Program-made: the position numbers and the translations under genes
Part shown: in pieces, positions 29,653 through 56,103 of the stretch
Numbering within the stretch: position 1 is the stretch's first letter
Layout: the number at the start of each line of letters is the position of its first letter
Source: Planctomycetota bacterium
GTDB taxonomy: Bacteria > Planctomycetota > UBA8108 > SXIK01
NCBI GenBank assembly: GCA_965223845.1
Contig: CBDCXR010000004.1
Coordinates: 4,320,001 to 4,384,000 of the forward strand
Length of the DNA stretch: 64,000 nt
Reading direction: 5' to 3'
The notes under the pieces: model-generated
What the model was told of the DNA's origin: nothing
Databases searched by the model: none
What the model saw: only the letters and a program-made list of their open reading frames with translations

Positions 29653-30042
29653 ATGGCGAAGAAGATCAAGCGCAAGCTGGCACCCCGGGAGCAGCAGATC
29701 ATGGACGTGCTCCACCAGCTCGGGAAGGCGTCCGTGGCCGAAGTGCGCGAGCGCCTCACCGATCCGCCGAGCTACTCCGCCGTGCGGACGATGCTCGGGC
29801 AGCTCGAACGAAAAGACCGAGTGCGGCGGGACCGCGACGGCGTGAAGCACCTTTACTCGGCGGTGGAGTCCAAGCGGTCCGCCAGCCGCTCCGCACTGCG
29901 GAGCGTGATCGAGACGTTCTTTCCCAAATCGGCCGGCGACGCACTCGCCGCGCTCATCGATGATTCGGCGAAAAAGCTCACGGACGAGGACCTCGACCGA
30001 CTCGAAGAAGCGATCGAGCGAGCTCGCAGAAAGGAACGGTAG
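29653..30042 (+). CDS. BlaI/MecI/CopY family transcriptional repressor
   Basis: LAPREQQIMDVL..ASVAEV..SYSAVRTML..LERK..Y; FF..S..AALI..LDRLEEAI. Confidence 0.92.
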   Translation: MAKKIKRKLAPREQQIMDVLHQLGKASVAEVRERLTDPPSYSAVRTMLGQLERKDRVRRDRDGVKHLYSAVESKRSASRSALRSVIETFFPKSAGDALAALIDDSAKKLTDEDLDRLEEAIERARRKER

Positions 30043-30044
30043 GC

Positions 30045-34838: not shown

Positions 34839-37508
34839 TTATCGGACGGACGGAGTACTTCCCGACTGCCTCCCCGTCGCGGTCGGTACGACTTCCCGCG
34901 ACCGCGCGGAGATACCGGCGACATCGTTAAGGTGGCAGCGCAGGCCGATCGCGCTCAGTACGCGACCGTGCGGAAGGCGGACCTTTCGCTCGAGCCCGCC
35001 GCGCGGCTCGACTCCGGCGCGAAACTCCTTCTCCTCGCCGAGCGTTCCGTCCGCGCTGAGCGGTCGTCCCCAAACGGCGAGGGTCTTCACGTCCCATTCG
35101 GGAGCGATCCGCGCGCCGAAGCCGGTCGCGACGAAGCCGTCCGGGAGATCGATCGCCGCTTCGAGCCCGGCATCCGTCTCCCAGCCGCCGACGAGGAACT
35201 CGCTCTCGCCGAGAGTCCCGTCGGACGACACCGGCGCGACGCGGAGCCGGAGCGTCGTCACGTTGTCCCTCGCGGCGCGCGCGCCGATTCCGGTGATCAC
35301 GAATCCGGGTGGAGCCGAAAGAGATGCCTCGACGCGATCGCTCGCATCGGCGCGTTCGTGCGCCAGCGCGAGAGCGCGTCCCGTTCGCTGGCCGACGAGC
35401 GTCGTTCCGGCCGACGGCGAACGTTCCGACGCGCCAAGATCGAAGACGCGAACGTTGTCGACGAACGCGCTGGCGCGGTCGAGATCGCGCCAACGAAAGA
35501 AATCGACGCCGATCGTCGCCTCGTCTCCCGCCGCGCGGAACGTGTGCTCGAAGCGAAGCCACCGGCCATCCGTCCAGTACCACTGCGTCCCGTTCGCGTC
35601 GCCGTTCTCCTCGCCCGCGCGGGGATCGGCCCAGAGTCGCACGCGCGTGTCTCCTCGCGGACCGTTCCGAACCGAAGTGTGCGCGCGTACGGACACGAGA
35701 TACACGTGACCGGACTCGGTCGGGATCCGCCGGAAGAGCGAGCTCTCCGCGAAGACTTGCTCGCGCTTCTTTCCGGCCGCGATCGACCAGCCGGCCATCT
35801 TCTTTCCCTCCCACTGCGATATGCGTTCAGCGCCTTCGCCCTGCTCGACCAGGCTCGCGATGGCGTCCGGGCCGGAAGTCATCCAACCTTCAAGCCCGTC
35901 CTCGAAGCCCGCGTTCTCGATCGGCACGGTGCGCGCGAAACGAATCACATTTCGGTGGCTCGGCTGCGCCGGCACCGGCGGCGCGAGTGGGAGAAGAATC
36001 GCCGGGTGATCGGGATAGAGAGGCGGCGGGGGCGGTGGATGCGGACCTCCAGGAGGACGGAGGCGGTAGACCGGCGTCCTCCACTCGGCACCGCCCGCTG
36101 AACGGGCGACGAGCCGAAGATCATGATCGTGACCGCGCCAGAGGTCATCGAAGACGATCTCGCTTTCGCCGATCGGTAGCTCGGCGGTGCGCACTTCGCG
36201 CGGACTGAGCCGTGTGAGCTCGACGGCGACGGTCGCGGGGGCCGTGGTTCCCCAACGAAGCCGGAGATCGCTCTTCTTTTCGTAGCTCGCGCGCAAGTTG
36301 TAGATCGCGGGTCCGGCCGCGTCTGGAATCTCACCGTAGATCCATGCGCGGACGTCGTGCCGCTGAACCTCCGTTTCGCTCGGTGCGGGGATCGAGCCCT
36401 TGTGCGGGATCGTGAACACCTCGAGGCGATACTCGCCGCCGGTCTCGACATCGAGCTCGCCCGAACCGAACAGGAACTGCGCCCGGCGTGTCGTCCCCGG
36501 AGTCGTGCACGCAACGTTCCACTTCGGTCCGGCGAGAAGCCTCGGGACGGGATCGGTCGACCAAACCCGAGCGACGACGTCTCGGCACTTCTCGGGAGCC
36601 GGCGACAGCTTCGCGTCGATGAGACGAACGCTCGGAGCGCGCGAGACAAAGGAAACCCCCGCCGCCCCGTGCACCCAGCCTTCCTCGTCGGCGTCGAGGA
36701 CGAGCGCGCGTGTCACCTCGGGCGGCTCTTCGACGATCCACGCGCCGAGATCGCTGCCGGCGACGCGTCGGCCATCGACGAAGAGTTCACCGCGGGCGTA
36801 GGCGTCGCCCGTCGCGTGCAGGTAGGGACGCCACGGTTCGCCATCTTCGCGGCGAAGAGCTATCGCGTACGTGGCTCCGGGAACGAGAGGCACATCTCCC
36901 GCACGCCAGCGACACCACCCCCACTCGGTCGAGTACCCGCCGCGAAACCGGCGCACGCTGCCGACGCGCTTCCCCGAAGGTCCGCCCGCGCGCACTTCCG
37001 CGAAAAAGCGCCCCGGGCGCGTCGCCACGAGCAAAGTGAAGCTGACGAGCTCGCGACCAGTCGCGCTGAACGTCTGCACGAACTCCCGTCCGGTGGCCCC
37101 CCAGACGCACGCATCGGGAGCGTAGACGTGGTCGATGAGAACGTCTCCGGCGTTGATCACTCCCGACTCGACGGCGGCTCCGAGAACGAACCGCGGAAAG
37201 AACGCGTAGGTCTCCGCAAACGTGTACGAAATCCGTCCCTGGCGAAAGGGATACTCGGTGTAGCCGCTCGTCGCCATCCCGGTCGACGACGTCTTCGGCG
37301 TTCCGTCGATGATGCACACGGTCCGCGTCCGCGGATAGAGAGGCGCGTTTCGCTCCGCATCGAGCATGCGGTAGAAGAGAACTTCCCCCGAGCGCTTCTC
37401 CTCGGCGGCGAGCGGCAACGCGTAAACGAGCGTCGATGCGAGGATCGCGATCCATGCTCGCGCGCGCGAGTGGTGGAGAGGAGAGAGGACCGAAGTCGCG
37501 AGAGACAT
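34839..37508 (-). CDS. Secreted multidomain hypothetical protein with CBM-like domains and a C-terminal threefold repeat
   Basis: Signal peptide, poly-Pro linker, IENAGFEDGLEGW, three PxG(F/R)VxxxxGxR repeats; GAGG RBS. Confidence 0.7.
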   Translation of the reverse strand: MSLATSVLSPLHHSRARAWIAILASTLVYALPLAAEEKRSGEVLFYRMLDAERNAPLYPRTRTVCIIDGTPKTSSTGMATSGYTEYPFRQGRISYTFAETYAFFPRFVLGAAVESGVINAGDVLIDHVYAPDACVWGATGREFVQTFSATGRELVSFTLLVATRPGRFFAEVRAGGPSGKRVGSVRRFRGGYSTEWGWCRWRAGDVPLVPGATYAIALRREDGEPWRPYLHATGDAYARGELFVDGRRVAGSDLGAWIVEEPPEVTRALVLDADEEGWVHGAAGVSFVSRAPSVRLIDAKLSPAPEKCRDVVARVWSTDPVPRLLAGPKWNVACTTPGTTRRAQFLFGSGELDVETGGEYRLEVFTIPHKGSIPAPSETEVQRHDVRAWIYGEIPDAAGPAIYNLRASYEKKSDLRLRWGTTAPATVAVELTRLSPREVRTAELPIGESEIVFDDLWRGHDHDLRLVARSAGGAEWRTPVYRLRPPGGPHPPPPPPLYPDHPAILLPLAPPVPAQPSHRNVIRFARTVPIENAGFEDGLEGWMTSGPDAIASLVEQGEGAERISQWEGKKMAGWSIAAGKKREQVFAESSLFRRIPTESGHVYLVSVRAHTSVRNGPRGDTRVRLWADPRAGEENGDANGTQWYWTDGRWLRFEHTFRAAGDEATIGVDFFRWRDLDRASAFVDNVRVFDLGASERSPSAGTTLVGQRTGRALALAHERADASDRVEASLSAPPGFVITGIGARAARDNVTTLRLRVAPVSSDGTLGESEFLVGGWETDAGLEAAIDLPDGFVATGFGARIAPEWDVKTLAVWGRPLSADGTLGEEKEFRAGVEPRGGLERKVRLPHGRVLSAIGLRCHLNDVAGISARSREVVPTATGRQSGSTPSVR

Positions 37509-37724: not shown

Positions 37725-39254
37725 ATGTCGCAATTGGAGAGAACGGCTCGAGCGAGCGCTTGGCGGTCGCCCGCCACGTGGGCGAGCGTGATCATCGCGA
37801 TCGGCGTCGTGCTGCGTGTACGGCAGTACCTCGCGAACCGCTCACTCTGGCTCGACGAGCTATGGCTCGCCAACAGCATTCTCTCGAGCGGATTCGCGGA
37901 GCTCGCCGAGCCGCTACCGAACGCCCAGACCGCGCCCGTCGGGTTTCTCTGGATCGTGAAGGGACTCACCGTCGCCTTCGGTTCGAGCGAGACCGTGCTC
38001 CGGCTCGTGCCGCTCGTCGCGGGGTCGGTCCTCCTCCCTCTCGTCTACATCGGCGCAAGCCCCCTCGCAGGTCGCGGTGTCGCTGCGATGGCAGTCGCGC
38101 TCCTCGCGTTCGAGAAGAGACATCTCAACTGGTCGCTCGAGCTGAAGCCGTACGCACTCGACGCGGTCGTCGCGTTCGCGCTCGTCCTTCTCTTCGTCCG
38201 TGCCGTGAAGCTGAGGTTCAGTGCGACCGCGACCGGCGCGCTCGTCGCCGGCGGGATCTTCGCGCTCTTCGTCTCGCATCCGGCAGTGATCATCCTCGCC
38301 GCCGGAATCGCGGGCGCCGCCGTCGCTACGCGCGACCGGCCGAGCACGACGTGGCCGAAGCTCGCGCTCGCGAGCGCGGTGTGGGCGGCGTGCTTCTCGC
38401 TTCAGTACTGGCTACTTCTACGCGACCAGATCGGGAACGGCGGCAATCAGGAATTCTGGCGCGATCACTTCCCACCCGCTCCGTTCGAATGGCCGAGCGA
38501 TCTCGCGTGGTTTCCGCTCGCCGTTCGCGACATCTTTCGTTCGACGATCAAGACGGGGCTACCCGAGATTTCTCTCGCGCTCTTCGTCGTCGGCGTCGGC
38601 GCACTCGCGCGCACGCAGCGCCTCGGGTCTATCTTCCTCGTCGCTCCCGTTCTCTTCGGTCTCGCCGCGGCGTCCCTTCGGCAGTATCCGTTCGGCGGTC
38701 GCCTCCTCACCTACTTCGCCCCCCTCGCGGGACTCGGCATCGCCGTGGGAGTCGGGTGGATCGGCTCGAGGACTCCTCGCTGGCCGCGCTTGCTCGCCGC
38801 GATCCTATTCGTCGCGGCGATGGCAGAAAACACCGCCGGTGCCGCGGCGCGATGCGTTCGGCCAGAGGAGAAGGAAGAGGCCCGCCCGGTGCTCGAAGCC
38901 GTCGCCACTCGATCCGAGCCGGGAGATCTCTACTACCTCGCGGTGAGCAGCGAACCGGCGTTTCGCTACTACGCAAGTCGCGCGGGGCTCGTCGACGTTC
39001 GCTCGAGCCGAGGAAGCCCGAGCCCGAACTCGTTCGAACACGAGCTCACAGAGCTCGCCGGCGAGCGCCGCGTGTGGATCTTCTTCGCGCACGGGATGCG
39101 GCTCCGCGGAGGCATCGACAACGAGAGGTCGGTGCTCGACATCGCCGATCGTCTCGGCGTCCGTCTCGACTCGGTGCGCGCGACGGGGTCGGCCGCCCAT
39201 CTCTACGATTTTCGGGCTCACTCCGCGTCAGAGGCTGCGGAGAAACGCGAGTAG
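37725..39254 (+). CDS. GT-C fold membrane glycosyltransferase (GT39/ArnT-like)
   Basis: NRSLWLDE, Q-x-APVGF, SETVLRL, ELKPY, QYPFGGRLL; many TM helices. The real start is ATG 37725 within the longer ORF. Confidence 0.85.
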   Translation: MSQLERTARASAWRSPATWASVIIAIGVVLRVRQYLANRSLWLDELWLANSILSSGFAELAEPLPNAQTAPVGFLWIVKGLTVAFGSSETVLRLVPLVAGSVLLPLVYIGASPLAGRGVAAMAVALLAFEKRHLNWSLELKPYALDAVVAFALVLLFVRAVKLRFSATATGALVAGGIFALFVSHPAVIILAAGIAGAAVATRDRPSTTWPKLALASAVWAACFSLQYWLLLRDQIGNGGNQEFWRDHFPPAPFEWPSDLAWFPLAVRDIFRSTIKTGLPEISLALFVVGVGALARTQRLGSIFLVAPVLFGLAAASLRQYPFGGRLLTYFAPLAGLGIAVGVGWIGSRTPRWPRLLAAILFVAAMAENTAGAAARCVRPEEKEEARPVLEAVATRSEPGDLYYLAVSSEPAFRYYASRAGLVDVRSSRGSPSPNSFEHELTELAGERRVWIFFAHGMRLRGGIDNERSVLDIADRLGVRLDSVRATGSAAHLYDFRAHSASEAAEKRE

Positions 39255-40964
39255 GTCTTCGCGCTCGGGCGCATCGAGTCGCCCCCCGATTCGATGGCGG
39301 TACTCGCCGAAGACGTCGCGGAGCGAACGCGCACGACCATCGTGCAAGAACCGCGACCGCTGTCCCGCGCCGCGGAGTGACGGGGGATTGAACTTCTTTC
39401 GGCCGGTCTCGTCTTCGAAACCGACGTCGTAGGTCGCGTGCGTCGTGTACGTCCGCGGCGCGTGGCACTCGGCGCAGCCGAGCTCGTCGAAGAGGCGTGC
39501 GCCGCGGCGAACCGCATCCGAAGCGGGCTCGATCGGGGGCGGTGGGCGAAGCGAGTGAAGATACGTCACGATGTCGCTCGCGCGCCGATCCCGAATCGCG
39601 GGTCCGCGCATAGTCGTCGCGACGCTTTGGTGCACCTGGTCCTGCAGTTCCTTCACGCCTCCGTTCCAGCCCCAAGGATCGGTGAGTCCGACTCCGAGAA
39701 GCGTCGGAATACTCTTCGGCGAGCCGTAGCCGCCATCGCCGAGCGTGTCGGCGAGGAGTCCGGCGGTGTGACCGTCCGAGTGGCAGCTGTGGCAGCTCAT
39801 ACGTTGGCCGAGAGAGAGCTCCGCGCTGAAGAAATCTCGCTCGCCGCGGTCTCGCGGGTGGTCTTCGGCTCTCGGCCCGAGCGAGATCTCGCGAGCGGCG
39901 CCCGTCTCCGACTCGACGACGTAGATGGATTCCGAATGCGTCGCAACGACGGCCACTCGACCACCGCCGACATCGACGATCCGCGTCGGCCGGTCCCCAG
40001 CGGCAACTCGCCTCGGCGCACGCTCGCCGTCGAGGAGAAGCACCTCGTCCACTCCACCGAGCGCGATCCAAGTTCGTCGATGGACGTCGACAGTGATTCC
40101 CGCGGGGTCCCCTGCGCCGCGATCGGGTTCGTCGAGAGTCCGCATCGCGGGCTCGAGCCGCGCCTTCGAATCGAGAAGACTCGCGAGGGCGATCGAGCTC
40201 AGCCCGTTCCGAATCAGCTTCCCCGAGTCGATCGCCTCCGGTGTGGTCGGTGACTCCGCGGAAAGAACCTGGTGCGTGAAGAGAAGCTCGCGGCCGTCCG
40301 GCGACAAGCCGAGCCCGCCGATATTGTGTCCGTCGATCGATCGTTCGCTCTCAACGCGCTGCGCACTCGATTCGAGGACCGCAAGCTCACCACCGAACGC
40401 TCCCGCGACGACCGCGTGACCCGACTCCGGAAGAACGAGTAGAGCGCCCGGAGCAAACGAGAGTTCGAGCTCGAAGAGCGGAGATCCCGAGCTCGAAGAA
40501 CCGAGTAGAGACTCGCGCGAATATACGGCGACCCGTCTCCCCCACCGCGACGCGACGAACACGCGATCGCGCCTCGAATCGACCGCGGCACGCCGGGAAT
40601 CCATCGCGACGGCGATTCGGCGGCGTACCGAGACGTCCGCCGAGTGTGCTTCGCCACCCGGAGCGTCGATCACGACGACTTCCGCGGTTTCGTCGTCGAG
40701 AGCGAGAAGTGACTCTGCGTCGAGCGCGACGAGGTCCGCGAGTCGCGCGGCGACCGGGACCGTCCGCACCGTCGCCATCGACTCGAGGTCGATGACAGAC
40801 AGATTCCCCGTGCGCCCTTCGGCCACGAACAGCGTCTTGCCGCGCGCGACCGCCGCGGCGGGTCGGCGTGCGACCTGCGCGGCGGTGCCGTCGGCGGAGA
40901 TCTCGAGTCCCATCCCCGAGGTGAATCCGGCGATCAAGACGAATCGAGCGAGACCGGTTCGCAT
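39228..40964 (-). CDS. YncE/YVTN-like beta-propeller plus di-heme cytochrome c (cytochrome c peroxidase-like)
   Basis: CHSCH and CAECH; PTLLGV..PWGWNG; PSLRG..FLHDGRA. Start is 40964 or GTG 41048. Confidence 0.85.
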   Translation of the reverse strand: MRTGLARFVLIAGFTSGMGLEISADGTAAQVARRPAAAVARGKTLFVAEGRTGNLSVIDLESMATVRTVPVAARLADLVALDAESLLALDDETAEVVVIDAPGGEAHSADVSVRRRIAVAMDSRRAAVDSRRDRVFVASRWGRRVAVYSRESLLGSSSSGSPLFELELSFAPGALLVLPESGHAVVAGAFGGELAVLESSAQRVESERSIDGHNIGGLGLSPDGRELLFTHQVLSAESPTTPEAIDSGKLIRNGLSSIALASLLDSKARLEPAMRTLDEPDRGAGDPAGITVDVHRRTWIALGGVDEVLLLDGERAPRRVAAGDRPTRIVDVGGGRVAVVATHSESIYVVESETGAAREISLGPRAEDHPRDRGERDFFSAELSLGQRMSCHSCHSDGHTAGLLADTLGDGGYGSPKSIPTLLGVGLTDPWGWNGGVKELQDQVHQSVATTMRGPAIRDRRASDIVTYLHSLRPPPPIEPASDAVRRGARLFDELGCAECHAPRTYTTHATYDVGFEDETGRKKFNPPSLRGAGQRSRFLHDGRARSLRDVFGEYRHRIGGRLDAPEREDLLAFLRSL

Positions 40965-41044
40965 CACCGCGCCCACGTCCGCTCGAGTCGTATGAGTGGG
41001 AACTCCGGTGTCGGCAACGGGGCGCGACGAACTTCTTCCGCTCT

Positions 41045-42829
41045 TCACCGCCCACTCCGAATGATTCTGATCGCGCGCTCGAGCACGGGGTCATTCCGTC
41101 CCAGGAAGTACTCCGGGCTCGGCTCGACGCGAACATCGGGAGCGACTCCATTCCCATCGAAGAGCTTCCCGTCGACCTGAAACGAGGCCATGGTTCCGAG
41201 TCGCACGTCGAGTGGACTACCGCTCAGCGGAATGCGCGTGGTAAACGCGCTCCCACCGCCGCTCGGAGTTCCGACGAGCGTCACGCCGCGCCAGCCCTTG
41301 AGCCCCGCGAGGAAGATATCCGTCGCGCTAAAGCACTTTTCGTTCGTGAGGACGACGACTGGCCGCCGGTAGTGGTAGACGCCCGGCCGATCGAGACGGC
41401 CGAGCACGAGGTAATGAAACTCGCTGAACTCGCCCGTCGGTAGCTCCCAGTCGGGCTTGAAGCGGCTGGCGAACGTTTTGATCGCCGCTCGTTCAGCCGC
41501 GTTCCAGCGTTCGTCGTTCACCCGATAGAGGAAACGGTGCTTCAGGTGATCTTCGGGGAGCGACGGGTCGAGACGGTACGCAGCGCAGTTCGCAACGCGC
41601 GGCTTGTCGCGGGGAGAGACGAGATACGAGAAGAAGAGCCGAAGTGCCTCCCGCGAACCGCCGCCGTTGTCGCGGACGTCGACGACGAGCCCACGCGTAT
41701 TTCGAAAGCGCGGCATCCATTCCTCGATTTCGGCGATCGCGGTCTCATCCATCGCTCGAATCCGGAGGTAGCCGATCTTTCCTGGGAGCTCGCGCGACTC
41801 CGTTCGCGGCCAAGTCCCGTAGGCGGGAAACCGTCTCGCGATCGGAAGCTCGATCCGGCGTCGTTTCCCGCGGGCCGATCGCAGCTCGACGCGAACGGTG
41901 CTCGATGAGGAATCGCCCAGCCGCGCGCGCCAGTGCGCGAGCCGACGCAGCTCCCGGAGGGCGTGGCGGCGCACGTACTGCGGAGAACCTTTCGGAACGA
42001 CGCTCGCCGCCCCGGAACACCATTCTTCGACCGTTCGGCCGTCGATCCGCGAAACATACGGATACTGGCTGTCGACAAAGGCCGACCGATCGGGCAAGAA
42101 CGCGACGAACTTCTCTCCGACCGGTTCGACGAGAAACGGCAAGAAGCCGTCGTCTCGGGTACGCGCGCTCTCGACACTCGCGTGGCCGTCGATGCCGAGG
42201 GCGAGAATCTCGGTGAGCCCGCGACTGAATTCCTCGAGACCGATCCCCTCGTCGACGCGCTTTCGGAGCGCCGCGATGGCTCCGTCGAAGTCCGCGCCGT
42301 TCGCCCGGTAGTACGACCAGCTTCTCCGGAGCGCGCGGGAGAATTCATCGAGCGCACGCGGGAAGTCATTGTCGTCCTCGCGCCTTTCGCCTCGTTGTCC
42401 CGCCCGAGCTCGCCGCACTCGCTCGCGATTGTCGTTCGTCATCTCGGCGCGCTCAACAACCGAGGCGTCGCGCGTCTTTCGATCGACGAGCTCGAGGCGA
42501 ACGGTCGTTCCCGGCGGTTTCCCTATCTCGCTCATCACTTCTACGAGATCTTCCGCGAAGCGCTTCTCCCAGTTGTCGGCGTAGGTCTTCCGGCAGAACT
42601 CGAGAATCTTGCGTGTCGAGAGGCCATCGATCGAGCGAAGCTCGTAGGCGCGCCCGTCGTACTCGACGCGAGCGCGAAGCCCGCGGCACTCCACTCGGGT
42701 AAACGGCGATAGCTTGGAGTAGCTTTGCGCGGAAGAGGGAATCGCCGTCGCGCAGCAAGCGACGACAGCCAAACATCGGACGAGAGGAGGCGGGAGCAAT
42801 CGAGCGAGCATTGCGGCGACGAACTCCAC
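41045..42829 (-). CDS. Secreted S41 family peptidase
   Basis: DGHA, IGYLRI, LVVDVRDNGGG, VVLTNEKCFSATDIF, LVGTPSGGG, GNGVAPDV. Confidence 0.88.
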   Translation of the reverse strand: MEFVAAMLARLLPPPLVRCLAVVACCATAIPSSAQSYSKLSPFTRVECRGLRARVEYDGRAYELRSIDGLSTRKILEFCRKTYADNWEKRFAEDLVEVMSEIGKPPGTTVRLELVDRKTRDASVVERAEMTNDNRERVRRARAGQRGERREDDNDFPRALDEFSRALRRSWSYYRANGADFDGAIAALRKRVDEGIGLEEFSRGLTEILALGIDGHASVESARTRDDGFLPFLVEPVGEKFVAFLPDRSAFVDSQYPYVSRIDGRTVEEWCSGAASVVPKGSPQYVRRHALRELRRLAHWRARLGDSSSSTVRVELRSARGKRRRIELPIARRFPAYGTWPRTESRELPGKIGYLRIRAMDETAIAEIEEWMPRFRNTRGLVVDVRDNGGGSREALRLFFSYLVSPRDKPRVANCAAYRLDPSLPEDHLKHRFLYRVNDERWNAAERAAIKTFASRFKPDWELPTGEFSEFHYLVLGRLDRPGVYHYRRPVVVLTNEKCFSATDIFLAGLKGWRGVTLVGTPSGGGSAFTTRIPLSGSPLDVRLGTMASFQVDGKLFDGNGVAPDVRVEPSPEYFLGRNDPVLERAIRIIRSGR

Positions 42830-42976: not shown

Positions 42977-44572
42977 CTATTCGTCGAGGATGGTGAGCTC
43001 GAAATAGAGCGCGTGCTCGGTGACCGACTGCTTGAACTCGTCGATCGTCGCCTGAAAATCGTCGCGAATGCGATCACGCAGCTCCTGGAATTCCGCCTCG
43101 GTGTACGAGGTCCAGGTCTTCGTCGAGTGCTCGACCGTCGTCATGTCCGGCTTCGCGTCGGCGAATCCGGAACCGCCCTGGATCACGCGTCCGCGCGTCC
43201 GCTCCAGAAGGCGAACGTAGAGCGGATGGAAGGGCATCGTCCAGCCCTTCTTTTCCCAGCTCCACTTCTCGTCGGTGGGGATCATCGCGACGAGGTCGGG
43301 ATCCGTCATCATTTCGAGACCGAGATCGCGAAGCGTCGCGTTGTGGCTTCCGTGATGGCCGACCTTGTAGAAAACGACGCGCCGGAGGAGATCCTCGGCC
43401 GTCCGCGGGAGGTAGTCCCCGTTGCTGTCGAGTCCGCCGAATTCGAGTTGATGCCAAGACAGCCAGTTTCCGACCTGCGCGTCGCCGGGAAAGAGAAGGA
43501 CCTTGCCGCTTCTCCGGAGCTCGAAGGCGAGAACGAGACTCGTATTGTTCGTGTCGTCGTCGAGCTGCAGCGCGAGATCCGCGGCTCGATCGAGCCAATC
43601 GTAGTCGATGCGGCGCCACGACTCGTCCGCGTCGTCCCCGTAGTGAGTGCGAAAGAACGGGTTCGTCTTCGCCTGCTCGAGTGGCACGCCGTGCACGCCG
43701 GCGAAGGGACGCTGCTCTTTCTCGAGCTCCCGGTCTTCGCCATCGAGATCGTCGAGGCGCGCACTGAGCGCGGCGGCGACGAAGCCACGATTCGAGTCGC
43801 GACGCTGGCGCGCGCCGTAGGCGGCGAGGTGGCCGTAGACCTCCGAGTGCGCACCGGAGCTCGGCGCCGACTTCTCGAGCAGCGCGCCTCGCGGCGGCCC
43901 GAGGACGTGGATGTCGACCTCCGGCACATCCTCGATTTCGAGCCAGTCCCCGGGCTCGAAGTAGTGGTGCGTCTCGGAGACTCCGCGCGCGACCTTGATC
44001 GCGCCTTCGGTTTTCGGACTGAACCGGAAGCCGAAGAGCGAGGCCTCCGCTGCGCCGCGATCCGGTTCACCGTCGTCGTCGAGTCCCGCGCCGACGCCCG
44101 AGAATCCGAGCACGCTCGAGATCTCCGCTCCCGCGTCGAGACCCGCCGCACCGAGCGCATCACTCGCCGCAGCGAGCGCGCGCAGTCGGTCGAACCTCTC
44201 TTCGCCGAGCTCTTGCGCTTCGGCGTCGTCCTCATTCTCCGTCCACGCGAACCAGATCTCGCCGAACTGGATCTTCGTTCGATCCTCGAGAATCTTCCGC
44301 GGTTTCGAGTAGCTGAACCCGCCGAGGTGATCGAAGTGCTCGTGAGTGATGACGAGGATGTCGATGAAGCCGCCCGTCGAAGTGCGGATGTCCTCGACGA
44401 TCTTCTTCAGATGATCGCTCCCCCCAGACGTGCCGTAGAAGATTCCGCAATCGATCAGGATGTACTTCGCGTTTCCGTCGTCTTGGCGAAGTGCAAGGAG
44501 GAGGCAATCACCGAGGCCGACACGGTACATGCGGACCGTCACACCGGATTCGGGCGCGTTGAGGCGCGGCAT
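42977..44572 (-). CDS. MBL-fold metallo-hydrolase (ComEC/Rec2-like), cytoplasmic
   Basis: VGLGDCLLL, ILIDCG, ITHEHFDHLGGF, NNTSLVL, LFPGDAQ, YKVGHHGSHNAT; no signal peptide. Confidence 0.88.
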   Translation of the reverse strand: MPRLNAPESGVTVRMYRVGLGDCLLLALRQDDGNAKYILIDCGIFYGTSGGSDHLKKIVEDIRTSTGGFIDILVITHEHFDHLGGFSYSKPRKILEDRTKIQFGEIWFAWTENEDDAEAQELGEERFDRLRALAAASDALGAAGLDAGAEISSVLGFSGVGAGLDDDGEPDRGAAEASLFGFRFSPKTEGAIKVARGVSETHHYFEPGDWLEIEDVPEVDIHVLGPPRGALLEKSAPSSGAHSEVYGHLAAYGARQRRDSNRGFVAAALSARLDDLDGEDRELEKEQRPFAGVHGVPLEQAKTNPFFRTHYGDDADESWRRIDYDWLDRAADLALQLDDDTNNTSLVLAFELRRSGKVLLFPGDAQVGNWLSWHQLEFGGLDSNGDYLPRTAEDLLRRVVFYKVGHHGSHNATLRDLGLEMMTDPDLVAMIPTDEKWSWEKKGWTMPFHPLYVRLLERTRGRVIQGGSGFADAKPDMTTVEHSTKTWTSYTEAEFQELRDRIRDDFQATIDEFKQSVTEHALYFELTILDE

Positions 44573-44626
44573 CGTCGATACTCCGATTCGGAATGGACTC
44601 CGGGCTGAATCTACCGCGCGACGGAT

Positions 44627-46621
44627 CTATCCGCCGCAGGACCGATGGAGGGCGGCGAATGGCTCGCCCCGCCGCGAGCTCGAAGCACCGTAGTAAAGAG
44701 AGGCGAGCGAACCCTCGTCGCCGTGAATGAATCGCCGCTGGCGCTCGAGCCGGTCGCCGTCCGCTATGTCGCCGTGGGTGACGATCGCGTACCGGACGCG
44801 CCGGGCCTTGGGATCGAGGATCACCGTACACCCCGCGCGGTACGTAAAGTCTTCCGGCCCTACCTTACGCCCGGCGTCAGCCCGCTTTTGCTTCTCAGGA
44901 TCGAGATACCCGCGTCGCGACTGCGTAATGCTGAGGACGAGCTCGGTGGTCAGCTGTCCGCGAAATCCGGAGCGCCGCGCGGTTCGGACGCCGTGAACCT
45001 CGACCTCGGGAAGTCCGTCCTCTCCGGTGACGATCGTGCGGAGCTTCGTCCTTCCCAGCACGAGCCCGAGCGCACGCGCGGTCGCGGGACCGGCGAGCTC
45101 CCGAAGGCGATGGCGCACGATCTTCGCGCCTTCTCGCATCCCCCGCCACGCTTCCTCGCGGTCGGTCGAGAGATCCCAGGCGAGAGACCACTCGGCGTCT
45201 CCTTCGGCTCGGGGGTCGAACAGCCGATCGAGCTCCCGCCGGAGCTCGGTCTCGTCCACGCCTTCGAGCCGGAAGAACGGCCGCCAGCGGAGGCTGTCGA
45301 CGGAGAGACTGCGTACGCCGCGAGGATAGATTCCGTGGCGCCGAAAGGCCTCGACGAGCGCGATGCGGTAATGATGCGGATCATCTTCGAAGAGATCGCT
45401 GTCCGCGGTGATCAGCGCTCGCAAGTAGTCACCGAACGTGATGTCGACCGGCTGGCAATAGTCGATCGCGCGGATGCACATCCTGAGGACATGGTGCGCG
45501 GACTTTACCGCTTCGTCCGCCATCCGGTCGACGAGCTCGGGCGCGAGGCGACGTTCGGAGCCGCCATCGCCCGCGATCCGAACGAGATCGCTCACGCGGT
45601 TCGTGTAGATCGCGACGAACGCCTCGAACACCGCGGCAACGAGAATCGAGCCACGCGCGTGGGGCTCGCTCGTGCGTCCGAGGCGAGTCGGATCGGGTTC
45701 GCGCGGCCGCCATTCGCCACTCGTCGCATCGATCTCCCCGAGCGCGTCGCGAAGCGCCCCCCCGTGCCCGAGTCCGCGCCCGAACTCCTGCGCGAGCTCG
45801 CCGAGCAGATTCTGACGCGCGAGGTCGCCGCCGGTTTTCGCGATCTGATCTCGCAGCACCTCGCGGTGCGAAAAGTGCTGGAAGATCGCGACGAGATCGG
45901 AGAACGCTTCGTGAAACGCGAAGACATCCGGGTTCGAGACTTCCGCAAAGAGCGGGTGAACTCCGTCGAGGAGTGCGTGGGAAACCTCGTGGGCGATGAT
46001 GTCATGAGAGAGGCACGTGAAGACGATGTTCCCGGGCGCGTGAATCGTCGAGTGGCTCGACGCCGTGAAGTAACCGAAGAGGAGCGCCTTCTTGTCGGGA
46101 CTGTAGTAGGCGTTCGCCTCACGAAGAGCGTGCGGATAAACTCGCAGACGACGAACGAACTTGAGTTCGAATCCGCCGTCGTCGGTGAACTCTTCCCGCC
46201 CCGACCAGATGGCCACGCGACCGAGGGCCTCCTCGAAGAAGCCGATGGTGTTCATCGCGACGGCGTAGACCATCTGCTGATGGAACTGAGGGTGGTCTTC
46301 CGACGGAGCGAGTCCGTCCTGGGCGAGAAGGTGGGGATCGTTGAGATCGACGGGCGGATAGAAGCGGTCGCTCGCCGGGTCGATGTCGACCACCTCGAGA
46401 TACTCACCCACGGGACCGGGCTCGAGCGAAGACCGGCCCGTGCGAGGATCGTGCTCCCACGGCACGCAGAGAACGACCGAATTGATCATCGCGGTGTCGA
46501 GCCGACGCGCGAGACTCGGATCGAAGGCGTAGACGCGCAGACGCCGATGCGGCGGGCGCTGGACTCCGGACGGTGACGCGCCTTCCGAGCCCGGCGCGCC
46601 GCCCTGGTTCTCGTCGGTCAC
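44627..46621 (-). CDS. Thermolysin-like (M4-type gluzincin) metallopeptidase, cytoplasmic
   Basis: NAYY, DIIAHEVSHALLDG, FHEAFSD, EPHARGS; no signal peptide; GAGAGGAAGAGG RBS. Confidence 0.88.
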   Translation of the reverse strand: MTDENQGGAPGSEGASPSGVQRPPHRRLRVYAFDPSLARRLDTAMINSVVLCVPWEHDPRTGRSSLEPGPVGEYLEVVDIDPASDRFYPPVDLNDPHLLAQDGLAPSEDHPQFHQQMVYAVAMNTIGFFEEALGRVAIWSGREEFTDDGGFELKFVRRLRVYPHALREANAYYSPDKKALLFGYFTASSHSTIHAPGNIVFTCLSHDIIAHEVSHALLDGVHPLFAEVSNPDVFAFHEAFSDLVAIFQHFSHREVLRDQIAKTGGDLARQNLLGELAQEFGRGLGHGGALRDALGEIDATSGEWRPREPDPTRLGRTSEPHARGSILVAAVFEAFVAIYTNRVSDLVRIAGDGGSERRLAPELVDRMADEAVKSAHHVLRMCIRAIDYCQPVDITFGDYLRALITADSDLFEDDPHHYRIALVEAFRRHGIYPRGVRSLSVDSLRWRPFFRLEGVDETELRRELDRLFDPRAEGDAEWSLAWDLSTDREEAWRGMREGAKIVRHRLRELAGPATARALGLVLGRTKLRTIVTGEDGLPEVEVHGVRTARRSGFRGQLTTELVLSITQSRRGYLDPEKQKRADAGRKVGPEDFTYRAGCTVILDPKARRVRYAIVTHGDIADGDRLERQRRFIHGDEGSLASLYYGASSSRRGEPFAALHRSCGG

Positions 46622-46914
46622 TAGACTGCCTCTTCCTCTCTCGCCCGACTGCGTGCGGACGGAGACGGGTCGCGCGGCCTAAACCCGTACCCCATATGCC
46701 CATGCGCGCGATCGCCGAGCTCGCACGTTGAAGGCGCCGCAATCAACGAACGCGGCATCGAGTAGGCAGAATTGTGATCGAACAGGCGACGAATGTCCAG
46801 TTCGCCTCGACGCTCGACACTCCCGCTATTCGTTGCGCGGCGGATGAGGTAGAAGAGAACGGAACTGAAGAAAGCGTCACTCGAATTGTTCGCAACAGAG
46901 ATCTAGCTCGTGTC

Positions 46915-47481
46915 ATGAAACGCCCGATTCGCTGTGAATGGTGCGGGGACGATCCCCTCTACGTCTCGTACCACGACGAGGAATGGGGAGTCCCGGTTCA
47001 CGACGATCGAAAGCTCTTCGAGTTTCTCACGCTCGAAAGCGCGCAGGCTGGGCTGAGCTGGATCACCGTCCTTCGAAAGCGCGAAAACTATCGAAGGCTC
47101 TTCGCGGAGTTCGATCCGGAGCGCGTCGCGAGATTCAACCGCCGCAGCGTCGAGCGGCTGCTGCGTGACCCCGGAATCATTCGCAACCGCCAGAAGGTCG
47201 AAGCGGCGGTCAACAACGCGAAACGTTTCCTCGACGTAGTCGAAGAGTTCGGCAGCTTCGACTCGTACTCGTGGCGATTCGTCGGCGGCAAGACGATGAA
47301 GAATCGCTGGCGGACTCTTTCCGAAATCCCCGCGACCTCGAAGGAGTCCGACGCGTTCAGCCGTGATCTCAAGGCGCGCGGATTCAAATTTGTCGGCTCG
47401 ACGATCGTCTATGCGCACATGCAGGCCTGCGGCATGGTGAATGACCACGTCCGGTCCTGCTTTCGGCACGGCGAGGTGTAA
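46915..47481 (+). CDS. tag: DNA-3-methyladenine glycosylase I
   Basis: RCEW, YHDEEWG, LESAQAGLSWITVLRKRENY, IIRNRQK, GFKFVGSTIVYAHMQACGMVNDH..C. Confidence 0.96.
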   Translation: MKRPIRCEWCGDDPLYVSYHDEEWGVPVHDDRKLFEFLTLESAQAGLSWITVLRKRENYRRLFAEFDPERVARFNRRSVERLLRDPGIIRNRQKVEAAVNNAKRFLDVVEEFGSFDSYSWRFVGGKTMKNRWRTLSEIPATSKESDAFSRDLKARGFKFVGSTIVYAHMQACGMVNDHVRSCFRHGEV

Positions 47482-47837
47482 GGGGAGTCGTCTCAACACC
47501 TTCCGACGTGGCAGCGCCGGAGCGTGGGGCAGGTCTCCGAGTGCGAAGTAGTTGATTCCGCGCAATTCGTCACGCGGAGGGCCGCTCGATCGCCCGCGAA
47601 CGGCGCGTGGTCCCGTCAGTTTCTCTTGCACTCCGTGCGCGGGGCCTCGACGATGGCGCGCGTGGGAACGATGGACAGGGGTCCTCACGGGCCGCAGGTT
47701 GTGGAAGAGGAGGCAGTCACTGGGTGATTCGACGCTGATTGTTGTGGTCCCCCATCCTCGATGTCGGCGGCCCCGATCGCTCGTCCGCGGGGATGCGGTC
47801 TCGCAGTTTGTGGTAGGCAGTTTTGGAGGGAGATCTC

Positions 47838-49865
47838 ATGTTGTGTCGGCTCGTGTTCGCGCTCGCTGCTCTGTTGGCGCTCGTCCCGTCGGACGACGCC
47901 CGCGGACAGCAGTTCAGCATCGATCATTTCAAGATCTACGACGTCGCGGATATTCCGACTCCCGCGTCCGTTCAGCTACGCGGCCAGTTCGACGAGGATT
48001 TCGTCCCGGCGCAGGTGCGTGCGCTCAGTTACTTCGCGACCCCGGTCGACAAGAACGGCGAAGGACTGATCAACCCGAACGCTCACTTGAGCTGGTACAG
48101 CATCGTCGAGCGCACGCGCACGGAACCGCGCTCGGTCATCGTGCGAAACCAGTTCGGGGAGGATCTGCTGACGGTCGGGCGACCGCTCTTCCTCCTCGCG
48201 CCCGCAGAGAAGAGGGAAGCAGGAAGTACGCGTCCGTCCAGGCTCAGCCACTTCAAGGTGTACGCGGTCAGCGAGACCGAGCCGATCAACGCGGTCGTTT
48301 CGCTCAAGGATCAGTTCGGCTCGAGCGAGAAGGTTCGCGTTCTCAATCCGATCCTGTTCGCCGTTCCGGTGGAGAAGATTCACGGGGACACCCGGGAAGA
48401 CATCGCCAACGAAGACGACCACCTCACGATCTATCGAGTCGCTCCGGCCGATCGCGAAGTGACCGATCAGTTCAAGACGGACCGTCCGATCGAGTTCCAT
48501 CCCTGCCGGTGGCTCGCGGTTCCGTCGAAGAAGCAGATCTGTGAAATCCCGCACTTCAAGGCCTACCCACTCGAAGCACAGCCCATCCAAGACAAGGTGG
48601 CGCTCAAGGGTCAATTCGACGAAGACTTCGTCGGGACGAAGCTCACTCGCCTGAGTCTCTTTGCGAATCCGGTGAGCAAGAACGGCGAGGGAATACCCGA
48701 TCGGAACGCCCATCTCAACTGGTACGAGATCGAGGGACCGACCGAGCCGGAGCGCACGCTCGAGATTCGTAACCAGTTCGGCGTCGAGCACATTCGCATC
48801 GGACAGCCGAAGTTTCTCGCGTCCCCGGCGGAGAAGCACGAGGAAGGAAGCGAGTTTCCGAAGCGCCTCGACCACTTCAAATGCTACGAAGTTCTCGAAG
48901 GACGGGCTCCCGACCGGGTCGTTTCGCTCGAGGATCAGTTCGGCCGCGACAACGAGATGCGGGTCCTCAAGCCTCGATTCTTTTGCGTTCCGGTGGAGAA
49001 GCTGCACGGGAGCGGCAAACCCACGCGCATTCACTGCCCCTCGCAGCATCTCACCGTCTACGACGTCGCGCCGAGGCCGCGAGTGGTAGTCGATCAGTTC
49101 GGAGTGCGTCAGATCGAGTTCGCGCCCTGTGAGCTTCTCTGCGTACCGACGCTGAAGAGGGTCACGGTGATTCCTCCGAAGCTCGATCACTTTGAAATCT
49201 ACGACGTCGAGCCCGTCTCGCCGAATCTCGGCCCCGACAATCGAGTCGATCTCACGGGCGCGGGCGGCGTGAGTCATGGGCACGTGTTTGTCGGCGACCA
49301 GACTCGCTTCGCCGTCGCCACGGACAAGAACGGCGAAGGTCTCGCAAACCGGCACGCGCATCTCACGGTATTCGATCTCGACCCGGACGGGTCGACGCCC
49401 GAGAGAACCGTCGAGTTCGAGAACCAATTCGGACCGCAATCGGCGCGGCTCGGAAGAAAGAGCCTCCTCCTCGTTCCCGCCCAAAAATTCGAAACTGGGA
49501 GCCAATTCCCGGCGGGACTCGACCATTACGTCGCCTTCGAGGTACTCGACGCGGCCGACACGGAGTTTGGCCCGGTGACGCTCGTAGACCAGCTGCCGTC
49601 GATCGGAGTCGAGAACGACCTCGAAGACCCTCGACCCGTACGCAAGCTGCGCTTCTTCGCCGTTCCGGTGCGGAAGAAGCACGGCGAAAGCACCTCGCCG
49701 GAAATTCAGAATCCGACGAAACACTTGGCGATCTACGACGTCGACCAGCGAAAGACGAATCAGCAGCGAGGCTGCCAGGATCAATTCGGACGACGCGGTT
49801 TCGTCATCCTGCAGAGCTCCATGCTCGCCGTACCGTCCGATTCGTCGACGTTCGCCGAGAACTGA
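47838..49865 (+). CDS. Secreted repeat protein built from H(F/L)xxY...DQFG...VPxxK units
   Basis: Signal peptide, GGAGG RBS, twelve His-containing subrepeats arranged in three super-repeats of about 210 aa. Confidence 0.85.
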   Translation: MLCRLVFALAALLALVPSDDARGQQFSIDHFKIYDVADIPTPASVQLRGQFDEDFVPAQVRALSYFATPVDKNGEGLINPNAHLSWYSIVERTRTEPRSVIVRNQFGEDLLTVGRPLFLLAPAEKREAGSTRPSRLSHFKVYAVSETEPINAVVSLKDQFGSSEKVRVLNPILFAVPVEKIHGDTREDIANEDDHLTIYRVAPADREVTDQFKTDRPIEFHPCRWLAVPSKKQICEIPHFKAYPLEAQPIQDKVALKGQFDEDFVGTKLTRLSLFANPVSKNGEGIPDRNAHLNWYEIEGPTEPERTLEIRNQFGVEHIRIGQPKFLASPAEKHEEGSEFPKRLDHFKCYEVLEGRAPDRVVSLEDQFGRDNEMRVLKPRFFCVPVEKLHGSGKPTRIHCPSQHLTVYDVAPRPRVVVDQFGVRQIEFAPCELLCVPTLKRVTVIPPKLDHFEIYDVEPVSPNLGPDNRVDLTGAGGVSHGHVFVGDQTRFAVATDKNGEGLANRHAHLTVFDLDPDGSTPERTVEFENQFGPQSARLGRKSLLLVPAQKFETGSQFPAGLDHYVAFEVLDAADTEFGPVTLVDQLPSIGVENDLEDPRPVRKLRFFAVPVRKKHGESTSPEIQNPTKHLAIYDVDQRKTNQQRGCQDQFGRRGFVILQSSMLAVPSDSSTFAEN

Positions 49866-55005: not shown

Positions 55006-56103
55006 TCACGATCCTGGCGGCGGCAGGTCGTACGGAGCGATACCGTCTGAAAGCCGAAACGCCACCGCGAACGGAAACTCGCCCTTGGGCGCATTGCGCG
55101 TATAGCGTCCCTCGCCCCAGTAGTCACCCTTGACGACGACGTCGAAGCGAGCGAGGCGACCGTTCTCGACGAGGACGAATCCGAGAATCTCTGCCTTGTA
55201 GCCTCGATCGCCGGCAGCGCTCTCGAAGTGGACCTTGCCGGTGAGGCGTCCCTCGTCCAGCGTGATCTCGAACGACTTCACCTCGCTCTTTCGCCAGCGG
55301 CCCGGTTCGCCACGAGTGTTGTCGTTCAGCAGCGGAGAGATCCGCTGCTTCAACTCGTCGGGCATCCGCCCGCCCGCGAGTGCCGCGATCTCTTCCTTCG
55401 CGATCCAGAGATGATCGCGCGCGAGCGACTGCTGATGGATCCGTCGAAATCGATCGTCCGGCGGTTCGTATCCGCCCAGCACACGCGACGTCACGAGAAC
55501 GGCCTGGCTGCCTTTCGGTAGGGACCACAGCGGCCCGGCGCTCTCGTGGCCCTCCAAGATCTTCGGCAGACCATCCTTCGGTTCGTGCGCGTCGAGCGCG
55601 CGTTTGAGCAGCTTCCATGCCGCGTCCCCCCTCACGGTATTCGAGTAGGAGAGCAGTTCGGCGGATGGAGTAAAGAAGTAGAGTCCCTGGTTGTAACCGC
55701 TCACCTTTTCGCCGGTCTGGCGGACGAGCTTTTCGAAGAGGACGTACTCCACGTCCTTGCGTCGCCGATGGTGATGCTGGTTCACCGCGACGCTGACGAA
55801 CTTGCTCTTGATCTCTCGCACGAACTCGGCGTCGCCAAAGACCGTCACGCGGTCTGTGATGCCGTTGTTTCACACGCACCCGAGCGGGTGACCGGAGCGC
55901 ACGACCATGAAGACGGGCTTCTTCTCCCGCGAAGCTTGAACGCAAGCCTCCGCGAGCGAGGTCTTCCACGCGATGCTGGACCAGCCCTCTTCCTTGGGGG
56001 GACGCAGCTTCTCGTGGATTCTCGCGAATTCCTCATCGTCGAGCTTGGTCGACGGTTCGAGCGCGGTCTGTCCGAGCAGAATCAGAACGGCGAGCGTGGT
56101 CAT
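55006..56103 (-). CDS. Putative secreted selenoprotein: thioredoxin-like N-terminal domain with a CxU motif, read through TGA 55870-55872
   Basis: ORFs 55870-56103 and 55006-55848 are in the same frame and join as GHPLGCV-TGA-NNGITDRVTVF. A SECIS-like hairpin follows directly. Confidence 0.75.
55823..55869 (-). promoter_or_regulatory. Putative bacterial SECIS element
   Basis: After the UGA: upper stem AGACCG/CGGUCU, loop CGUGA starting 21 nt downstream, lower stem CGGC/GCCG and AAC/GUU. Confidence 0.6.

Follow-up and report, generated by a model that had tools for sequence, protein, structure and literature searches.

A thermolysin-like metalloprotease and a ComEC-type MBL-fold hydrolase encoded side by side in a planctomycete: a candidate protease-activated conflict or defence module

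Two adjoining genes and the proteins they encode

Here we describe a pair of genes in a 64,000-nucleotide stretch of a Planctomycetota genome (NCBI GenBank assembly GCA_965223845.1, contig CBDCXR010000004.1, positions 4,320,001–4,384,000 of the forward strand; hereafter the window, in whose numbering its features are given). One gene encodes a predicted cytoplasmic, thermolysin-like metalloprotease and the other a hydrolase of the metallo-β-lactamase (MBL) fold, and together they most likely represent an uncharacterised variant of the protease-activated anti-phage nuclease systems. Both lie on the minus strand: the upstream member, the protease gene (P0002; 44627–46621), opens with GTG and encodes 664 amino acids (aa), and the downstream member, the MBL gene (P0001; 42977–44572), opens with ATG and encodes 531 aa. 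The spacer between them (44573–44626, minus strand) is 54 nucleotides (nt) long and holds a GGAG 9 nt before the MBL start codon; a second Shine-Dalgarno-like element, GAGAGGAAGAGG, precedes the protease GTG, and no terminator-like site was found on the minus strand between the two genes. Codon-position GC is of the coding type in both (GC at third codon positions, GC3, of 0.79 in the protease gene and 0.81 in the MBL gene, in a genome of about 64% GC). Equally long open reading frames (ORFs) on the plus strand over the pair have no family matches and appear to be shadow frames. Upstream of the protease gene, a weak sigma-70-like promoter match (46771–46799, minus strand) agrees with the consensus at 9 of 12 positions; the scan returned 1 site against 0.3 expected from shuffles, and the site is a consensus match only. 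The original prediction, made from the DNA letters alone, had described two co-oriented genes 54 nt apart whose products have no signal peptide and lie in a neighbourhood of mostly exported proteins. This description holds: the two ORFs were confirmed, and in a crude hydropathy scan (maximum over 12-residue segments of the first 70 aa) the pair scores 1.56 and 1.71, against at least 2.0 in eight of the 11 neighbouring window proteins.

The sequence of the protease finds no match in Pfam (E up to 1), NCBIfam, PADLOC or the sequences of the Protein Data Bank (PDB; E up to 10). Its AlphaFold2 model, built on an alignment of 87 sequences (predicted local distance difference test, pLDDT, 87.1; predicted template modelling score, pTM, 0.92), was compared with the PDB by Foldseek and matched exclusively mature M36 fungalysins and M4 enzymes, with a probability of 1.00. 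The M36 matches include the fungalysin 7qp3 (E 1.6e-4; target-normalised template modelling score, TMt, 0.57); the M4 matches include LasB, vibriolysin, aureolysin, ProA and thermolysin, with TMt of 0.50–0.60 across 7qp3, 4k90, 8cr7, 3nqx, 1bqb and 4tln. M4 and M36 are gluzincins of clan MA. On this model P0002 is predicted to be a zinc metalloprotease of the thermolysin fold, in an uncurated family, of which a few members have weak matches to PF01447 (scores of 23.6 and 26.3 bits, the cut-off being 22.4).

The catalytic anatomy of the protease is intact, as had been claimed for its NAYY, HEVSH, EAFSD and downstream histidine motifs. In the zinc-binding and catalytic motif HEVSH (residues 211–215; 45977–45991, minus strand), H211, E212 and H215 are invariant among the 87 aligned relatives, as are H237, H321 and N170, the last of these opening NAYY (residues 170–173). 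In EAFSD (residues 238–242; 45896–45910, minus strand), conservation is 98.9% at both E238 and D242, and from the thermolysin-type motif we take E238 to be the candidate third zinc ligand, as in gluzincins. The NAYY strand belongs to an N-terminal beta-rich subdomain (residues 68–200; 46022–46420, minus strand) that is the predicted docking surface for the MBL protein, with G69, D81, Y88, P90, P111, H164, N170 and Y184 invariant. The propeptide families FTP, PepSY and M4 propeptide find no match in P0002, and RRLRVYAFDPS, a conserved motif, marks the start of its homologues as well, so that the claimed lack of a thermolysin prodomain stands. The C-terminal extension, put at about 200 aa in the original prediction, corresponds to a 177-aa domain beyond the M4/M36-like part (residues ~488–664; 44630–45160, minus strand), modelled as helices, a beta-sheet at 540–614 and a conserved tail ending in LHR. 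Its residues Q567, G597 and H659 (the latter in the LHR tail) are invariant, and R546, R550, R595, R610 and R629 nearly so. We regard it as a candidate sensor or regulatory domain; an atlas search with this domain gave no lead, the best score being 0.75 to an unnamed cluster.

The MBL protein passes the Pfam Lactamase_B cut-off narrowly (25.7 bits against 22.7), with its N terminus only. The best PDB fold match of its AlphaFold2 model (pLDDT 84.0, pTM 0.88) is the ComEC beta-lactamase-like domain 9ic4 of Moorella glycerini (E 4.9e-9, TMt 0.73). Because this 266-residue domain aligns over 465 columns, P0001 carries some 200 extra residues, in agreement with the large insertions noted earlier. 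The ComEC-type set of metal ligands is likewise complete: D41, H77, H79, D81, H82, D364, H406 and H407 occur in all 64 rows of a phylum-diverse alignment. H77, H79, D81 and H82 belong to motif 2, HEHFDH (residues 77–82, or 76–82 as THEHFDH; 44327–44344, minus strand), D364 to motif 4, GDA (residues 363–365; 43478–43486, minus strand), where it is also present in 120 of 120 family rows, and H406 and H407 to motif 5, HHGSH (residues 406–410; 43343–43357, minus strand), whose H410 occurs in 57 of the 64. E112 is conserved in 63 of the 64 diverse rows.

The extra residues fall into two insertions, the boundaries of which were read from secondary structure against the ComEC match, with core strands 202–225 separating them. 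Insertion 1 (residues ~112–200; 43973–44239, minus strand) contains a low-confidence loop at about 158–186 (pLDDT 50–64 over 161–190, below 50 at 175–184) and a family motif, GFFG..LGADG, in which F157 is present in 119 of 120 rows. Insertion 2 (residues ~229–345; 43538–43888, minus strand) comprises a disordered loop followed by helices, at 257–332, that are predicted to dock onto the protease. The loop itself (residues 233–253; 43814–43876, minus strand; pLDDT below 50 at 237–242 and 248–252) bears the motif SDPS...SEVYE and is a candidate cleavage or gating loop. Across 120 rows P238 is found in 115, E244 in 117 and Y246 in all; in the diverse set E244 is kept in 52 of 64 rows and a tyrosine or phenylalanine at 246 in 61.

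A PADLOC survey, which had been proposed as a check, is in line with the suspected defence connection for the MBL family, leaving the protease unmatched. P0001 matches the models for LmuA (2.4e-15), RTasMBL (4.1e-8) and Avs1a (1.9e-4), and among 97 members of its family LmuA is matched by all 97, RTasMBL by 65 and Avs1a by 40. By fold and motifs we consider P0001 to be a probable ComEC-type MBL-fold hydrolase and a candidate gated pro-nuclease.

Linkage, co-inheritance and relatives of the pair

The protease family is large, and about 55% identical across phyla. A first search scored 8000 candidates, all at E ≤ 0.001, and a profile search across 1.84 billion representatives clustered at 50% identity gave 5472 proteins with E ≤ 1e-3, of which 3982 reach 1e-10 and 1781 reach 1e-30; the MBL hits found in the searches numbered 5933. 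A genome scan with the protease alignment, at one genome per species for 185,579 species, yielded at least 505 relatives, the best 80 of which were used to count linkage. These 80 loci come from 11 phyla: Bacteroidota, Pseudomonadota, Acidobacteriota, Gemmatimonadota, Planctomycetota, Chloroflexota, Myxococcota, Verrucomicrobiota, Actinomycetota, Armatimonadota and Eiseniibacteriota. Because the ORF caller is crude in high-GC loci and missed or merged members of the pair in about 12 loci each, the counts rest on tblastn with P0001: in 77 of the 80 loci an MBL gene lies immediately 3' of the protease gene and in the same orientation, and in the remaining three the contig ends after merely 22, 74 and 216 nt of downstream DNA. 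Recurring in this way, the pairing is more than chance. The same order was found in all six plasmid loci examined and in one unverified phage contig. The idea that the two genes belong together is thus upheld in other genomes, in 77 of the 77 loci with enough downstream DNA and in six of six on plasmids. All-against-all clustering of 1003 crude ORFs placed no third gene family in more than 13 of the 80 loci; nothing beyond the protease and the MBL is conserved across them, and the core consists of two genes. One plasmid contig, from Rhizobium sp. CCGE 510, carries a second MBL gene of this family about 6 kb away from the pair and in the opposite orientation (L078:16067-17443).

The two proteins also share their history. 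Patristic distances on the protease and MBL trees correlate with r = 0.84 over 2016 pairs, against 0.14 for the best of 500 label shuffles. The protease tree requires 31 changes of phylum, with a minimum of 10, and its six Planctomycetota rows need six changes and do not cluster. These counts bear out the patchy distribution that had been suggested and fit horizontal spread, though counts of this kind are no proof of it. Among plasmid records 64 match, 35 of them conjugative; among phage records just 2 of 50,697 match, both partially.

Further information comes from relatives with altered architectures. Longer relatives were tried as protease–MBL fusions, the lengths of the pair adding up to 664 + 531 = 1195 aa, and rejected: BLAST found an MBL in none of 120 such proteins, and one relative of about 1150 aa (P0007) has no similarity to P0001 by BLASTP. 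Two protease modules are present in 119 of these 120 longer relatives, and such tandem proteins, of ~1100–1260 aa, are very common (P0006–P0033, P0244–P0363; loci L019, L037 and L077). Both catalytic motifs were found in 98 of the 120 and one motif in the remaining 22. Within the 98, the C-terminal copy keeps the catalytic glutamate in every case, whereas the N-terminal copy has it in 69 and carries glutamine, serine, aspartate or valine in 29. Because the N-terminal copy often loses this residue and the C-terminal one, among those scored, never does, catalysis appears to be under selection. The frequency of tandem forms suggests, from sequence, that the protease may work as a dimer or pseudo-dimer.

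These data bear on whether proteolysis matters at all. A tight two-gene operon, 64 plasmid records with 35 conjugative, and a predicted complex between the products (see below) would suit a toxin–antitoxin-like pair in which there is no proteolytic activation, the protease-like protein masking a toxic nuclease, or the reverse, until the loss or degradation of one partner frees the other. A mere binder would have no need of the HExxH and glutamate set, which shows no variation in C-terminal or sole protease modules, however, and the pattern of glutamates in the tandem copies argues for selected catalysis. Both proteins, at 664 and 531 aa, are moreover large, unlike typical antitoxins. We rate the chance of such an arrangement as slight.

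Other relatives carry additions of kinds met in conflict systems. N-terminal additions to the protease consist of TPR-S or of TIR plus TPR-S, and one relative is fused to a STAND-type NTPase (AAA_16/NPHP3_N). Co-occurrence with subtilase (S8) or caspase genes, raised at the outset as something to look for, was found in both forms. On plasmid pCMU01 of Methylorubrum extorquens CM4, a single 1032-aa protein joins a Peptidase_S8 subtilase to the thermolysin-like module (L081:5717-8815; named 'S8 family serine peptidase' in RefSeq); the MBL gene comes next, and two SIR2 genes and an IS5 element flank the fusion. At locus L054, a gene with a caspase domain (Peptidase_C14; L054:644-1528) lies 37 nt upstream of the metalloprotease gene on the same strand, so that this locus combines caspase, metalloprotease and MBL.

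The surroundings of the pair are variable. The most frequent companion is a patatin-like phospholipase gene, seen in 13 of the 80 loci (upstream on the same strand in 11, downstream in two) and confirmed as patatin by Pfam in all three of the genes scanned. Plasmid contexts include a CBASS cyclase with SAVED, ImmA/HTH and AAA plus HNH genes in Rhizobium rhizogenes; a CBASS cyclase and a Hachiman-like pair of DUF1837 and DEAD/DEAH helicase genes in R. leguminosarum; an AAA ATPase, an MPN/JAB protein and a WYL protein in Hymenobacter; an integrase, patatin and ThiF in Deinococcus; and an IS630 element alone in Mesorhizobium. In five of the 80 loci (L017, L018, L022, L030, L071) the pair adjoins the 6A-MBL anti-phage system, in varying arrangements. 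The system is well recognised at L018 (e.g. L018:2937-6408), with a cap2_3 protein at 551 bits against a cut-off of 320 and a 6A-MBL enzyme at 371.5 against 220; its parts flank a patatin–protease–MBL trio on both sides, and co-location in an island and a functional link are both possible. Directly upstream, on the same strand, a family-less ORF lies at L004, L025, L032, L034, L057, L059, L065 and L078; the one at L032 (L032:6725-7930) weakly resembles a SLATT domain, at 26.3 bits where the cut-off is 40. Such ORFs could be alternative third components.

Predicted complex, proposed mechanism and setting in the window

Complex prediction, the check envisaged for the supposed partnership, came out in its favour. 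It was run with protease residues 20–487 and the full-length MBL protein, and gave an interaction prediction score from aligned errors (ipSAE) of 0.71 (runs of 0.72, 0.71 and 0.70), the best of three controls reaching 0.00; 116 of 157 solved complexes and two of 215 mismatched pairs attain this mark, counts that hold roughly here, where our own alignments were used. Contacts agree between runs by at least 60%, and partner pLDDT is at least 78. The predicted interface joins protease residues 68–90, 109–111, 142 and 160–200, beside the NAYY strand, to the helices of MBL insertion 2 (257–332). At its centre on the MBL side, the 64 diverse rows retain P289, F290 and W326 in all 64, R320 in 63, W319 in 61, I322 in 60 and Y311 in 59; the first three residues equal the catalytic ones in invariance. 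Averaged over the interface, conservation lies little above background (0.79 against 0.73 in the protease, 0.63 against 0.62 in insertion 2). Loop 233–253 ends right where the docking helices start, and this modelled position is compatible with its presentation to the protease cleft. Structure-based prediction thus supports direct binding of protease and MBL protein.

We propose that the pair is a self-contained, horizontally mobile conflict module, most likely anti-phage, of the protease-activated, gated pro-nuclease kind, and put the probability of this reading at roughly 0.58. The ComEC-type MBL nuclease would be kept inactive by its two inserted segments, with the cytoplasmic thermolysin-fold protease sitting on the helical part of insertion 2. 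Upon a trigger, sensed possibly through the arginine-rich C-terminal domain or through dimerisation of the protease, the protease would cut one or both of the flexible insertion loops, the best candidate being the conserved loop 233–253 just upstream of the docking helices; the freed nuclease would then degrade DNA and the infected cell would be stopped. What we observe is the anatomy of the genes, their intact catalytic residues and folds, their strict linkage and joint inheritance, the resemblance of the MBL to defence MBL models, and the contexts and fusions of relatives; cleavage, activation, DNase activity, phage defence and the identity of the trigger we infer. The two-component switch put forward in the original prediction, with the metalloprotease sensing a trigger and cleaving the MBL protein, is partly supported, in that linkage, relatedness, context and binding model agree with it.

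The same complex could be read with the roles reversed, the MBL protein being the sensor or regulator, which binds or hydrolyses a nucleic acid or nucleotide signal, and the bound metalloprotease the effector that, after its release or activation, destroys host or phage proteins. The predicted complex looks stable rather than like a transient enzyme–substrate contact, and its interface does not include the protease active site. The protease is also the more conserved and more elaborated partner (~55% identity, tandem copies, N-terminal fusions), to which the patatin, TIR and S8 additions suggest that several effectors can be attached. Related MBLs of Hachiman, AVAST and canu, however, are protease-cleaved DNase effectors in the text passages of Tuck et al. 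(Science 2025, PMC12799240). The metal-binding residues of the MBL protein are all invariant in a fold closest to a nuclease, and a cleavage site would be expected to take the form seen here, a conserved motif within a disordered loop. We consider reversed roles unlikely.

Within the proposed activation of a gated pro-nuclease by its protease, a more specific form can be suggested tentatively, as a possibility that falls well short of even odds. Here the protease would be both sensor and switch of an immune module that stands alone, is large (at least 1781 protease clusters at 50% identity and E ≤ 1e-30) and has as yet no name: pre-bound to the MBL protein through the invariant aromatics of insertion 2, it would sense by its arginine-rich C-terminal domain or by dimerisation and then cut the adjacent gating loop. 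The tandem forms with a dead first copy would then be built-in pseudo-dimers, as in caspase activation. If this is true, a third protease class (metallo, after serine and cysteine) would operate on the same pro-nuclease logic, and it would be the sole class that works without a separate sensor protein. Since no separate sensor gene is conserved, the pair would be a simple setting in which to study the triggering of such proteases.

Several points weigh against our proposal of a protease-activated module. The C-terminal domain of the protease (488–664) is absent from the complex prediction, which may distort the docking, and the listed interface includes neither the active-site residues of the protease nor loop 233–253. 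The canonical motif-3 histidine has no invariant counterpart in the MBL family alignments. The matches to defence MBL models span just the first ~100 residues of P0001 and fall far below curated cut-offs; against NCBIfam it scores 30.8 bits with Avs1a (cut-off 420), 35.1 with 6A-MBL (220) and 14.1 with ComEC_Rec2 (TIGR00361; 190.05). The linkage counts cover the best 80 of the at least 505 relatives. In a scan of 63 upstream neighbours, from which the 13 patatin genes and 72 downstream neighbours were excluded, 33 have no Pfam family and the other 30 are mostly ordinary genes, with just about four conflict-like (a DNA methylase, a caspase, a CHAT protein and a GT4 enzyme). The window copy, finally, is surrounded by housekeeping or exported planctomycete genes and not by defence genes. 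No tRNA, integrase or convincing flanking repeats were found around it and there is no GC anomaly; with such neighbours and none of these marks, this copy has no island signature. The defence context foreseen by the original prediction was thus found in relatives, in CBASS, SIR2 and 6A-MBL neighbours and conflict-type fusions, and not around the window copy.

This setting is one ground on which to ask whether the pair is instead a housekeeping or metabolic one unrelated to conflict, for example a cytoplasmic peptidase and a phosphodiesterase in nucleic-acid or lipid turnover. In the window an S41 peptidase gene (41045–42829, minus strand) lies 147 nt downstream of the MBL gene, and a Tag 3-methyladenine glycosylase gene (46774–47481) is divergent from the protease gene; elsewhere, too, the upstream neighbours are mostly unrelated housekeeping genes, and the protease is recognised by none of the PADLOC, NCBIfam and Pfam defence models. 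A metabolic pair would sit poorly, however, with a patchy distribution and a protease tree incongruent with phyla, with a variable genomic context in which the pair alone is conserved, with TIR, TPR-S, STAND and S8 fusions in relatives and neighbouring CBASS, Hachiman-like, SIR2 and 6A-MBL genes, or with the resemblance of its MBL to defence MBL models. We therefore hold a housekeeping role to be quite improbable, and the gated pro-nuclease module remains our preferred reading.

Elsewhere the window is populated by typical planctomycete genes, encoding PSCyt1/PSCyt2/PSD1 and DUF1501 proteins and a cytochrome-c-peroxidase-like protein. The last 4 nt of the S41 peptidase gene (41045–41048) are shared with the start of the gene after it, which encodes this di-haem cytochrome c peroxidase-like protein. 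The two genes together occupy 39228–42829 (minus strand), and their overlap suggests that they form an operon of their own immediately beyond the MBL gene; this arrangement was not seen in the related loci. At 29653–34172 (plus strand) the gene for a BlaI-type repressor (Penicillinase_R) precedes that for a 1375-aa BlaR1-type M56 protein, an unusually elaborate sensor-protease that adds four CarboxypepD_reg repeats and a C-terminal thioredoxin/AhpC-like domain. A protein encoded at 47823–49865 (plus strand) has three DUF7450 repeats, with a DNA repeat spacing of 624 nt (an 84-nt segment, 73% identical). Two well-coded ORFs have no Pfam family, one of 889 aa at 34839–37508 (minus strand), the product of which has an N-terminal hydrophobic stretch, and one of 280 aa at 55006–55848 (minus strand).

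Comparison with known systems

As currently defined, the pair is not Avs1, canu, 6A-MBL, ComEC/Rec2 or M4/M36. The original statement that no characterised system has this exact pairing agrees with our text searches of the literature, which found no paper on a metalloprotease–MBL defence pair, a result on which the figures of PMC12799240 may bear. Term searches likewise found no such pair in the searched text of Kaur et al. (2020, 2021) and of a modularity-network preprint.

The protease shares with M4 enzymes (thermolysin, LasB, vibriolysin) and M36 enzymes (fungalysin) the HExxH motif with a downstream glutamate in an ExxxD-type motif, a NAYY-like edge strand and a two-lobed fold. Unlike them, it is cytoplasmic, lacking a signal peptide by the crude scan, an FTP/PepSY propeptide and a Pfam M4/M36 match, and it has an extra 177-aa C-terminal domain, an obligate MBL partner and relatives that are often tandem with an inactive first copy. 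Similarly, the MBL protein has its best fold match, and the HxHxDH, GDA and HHG metal motifs, in common with the C-terminal MBL domain of ComEC/Rec2 (9ic4), yet it is soluble, is without competence-channel or OB domains and carries its ~200 inserted residues. Like 6A-MBL (NCBIfam NF058523, NF058524), the pair uses a defence-associated MBL-fold enzyme, but one of a different MBL family; the partner in 6A-MBL is an E2–E1–JAB (cap2_3) protein, and no E1, E2, JAB or cap2_3 was found among the scanned ORFs of the window. It differs from AVAST type 1 in its Avs1a score, far below the cut-off, and in having no STAND NTPase among the same scanned ORFs.

The closest parallel lies in the systems of Tuck et al. 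(Science 2025, PMC12799240), as described in passages of the main text, where a ComEC-like MBL nuclease gated by two insertions that block the active site is a proenzyme. The nuclease–protease pairs there are HamM with protease-HamA (Hachiman), Avs1a with Avs1b (AVAST type 1), Lamassu and DRT variants, and CanC with the caspase CanA (canu). The partner proteases are trypsin-like or caspases, the nuclease is always encoded by a separate gene, and the nuclease and protease trees are congruent; the MBLs of Hachiman, AVAST and canu were shown experimentally to be DNase effectors cut by the partner protease, with conserved cut-site residues on the two gating insertions in HamM, Avs1a and CanC. The same passages mention nuclease homologues beside proteases of 'other diverse' families, which they do not name, and the spreadsheet supplement holds no metalloprotease or other peptidase terms.

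Measured against these descriptions, the likenesses are many. The window pair has a ComEC-like MBL with intact metal motifs and, in predicted models, two insertions with putatively flexible loops; the MBL is encoded by a separate gene adjoining the protease gene, as in canu downstream of it, and the trees are congruent; relatives of the pair occur in defence-island contexts; the MBL family matches, over about its first 100 residues, PADLOC LmuA, RTasMBL and Avs1a, nuclease types shown to be protease-activated; and the conserved motif of loop 233–253 may parallel the cut-site residues on the insertions of HamM, Avs1a and CanC. The differences lie mainly in the partner. P0002 is predicted to be a zinc enzyme of the thermolysin (M4/M36) fold with no trypsin or caspase domain, and it and most of its relatives are unfused to HamA, STAND or LmuA cores, the system consisting of two genes only. 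P0001, at 531 aa and with partly structured insertions, is larger than the MBLs of those systems (~42–46 kDa), and a stable complex is predicted here, unlike HamM, which was purified apart from HamAB.

What is new here is a large, uncurated two-gene family, with no conserved separate sensor gene, in at least 11 phyla; its protease is of the metalloprotease class, and the two proteins are predicted to form a complex in advance. To a specialist who knows the 2025 work the pair would be no great surprise. Two large sets of entries now called 'hypothetical protein' and 'MBL fold metallo-hydrolase' would nevertheless gain a name, and a metalloprotease partner would bring a third catalytic class under the principle of protease-activated MBLs, which those passages describe, with serine or cysteine proteases, for the Hachiman, AVAST, Lamassu, DRT and canu systems. 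In testable respects the pair thus resembles these systems as they are described there, while the class of its protease sets it apart from them in one feature by which they are defined.

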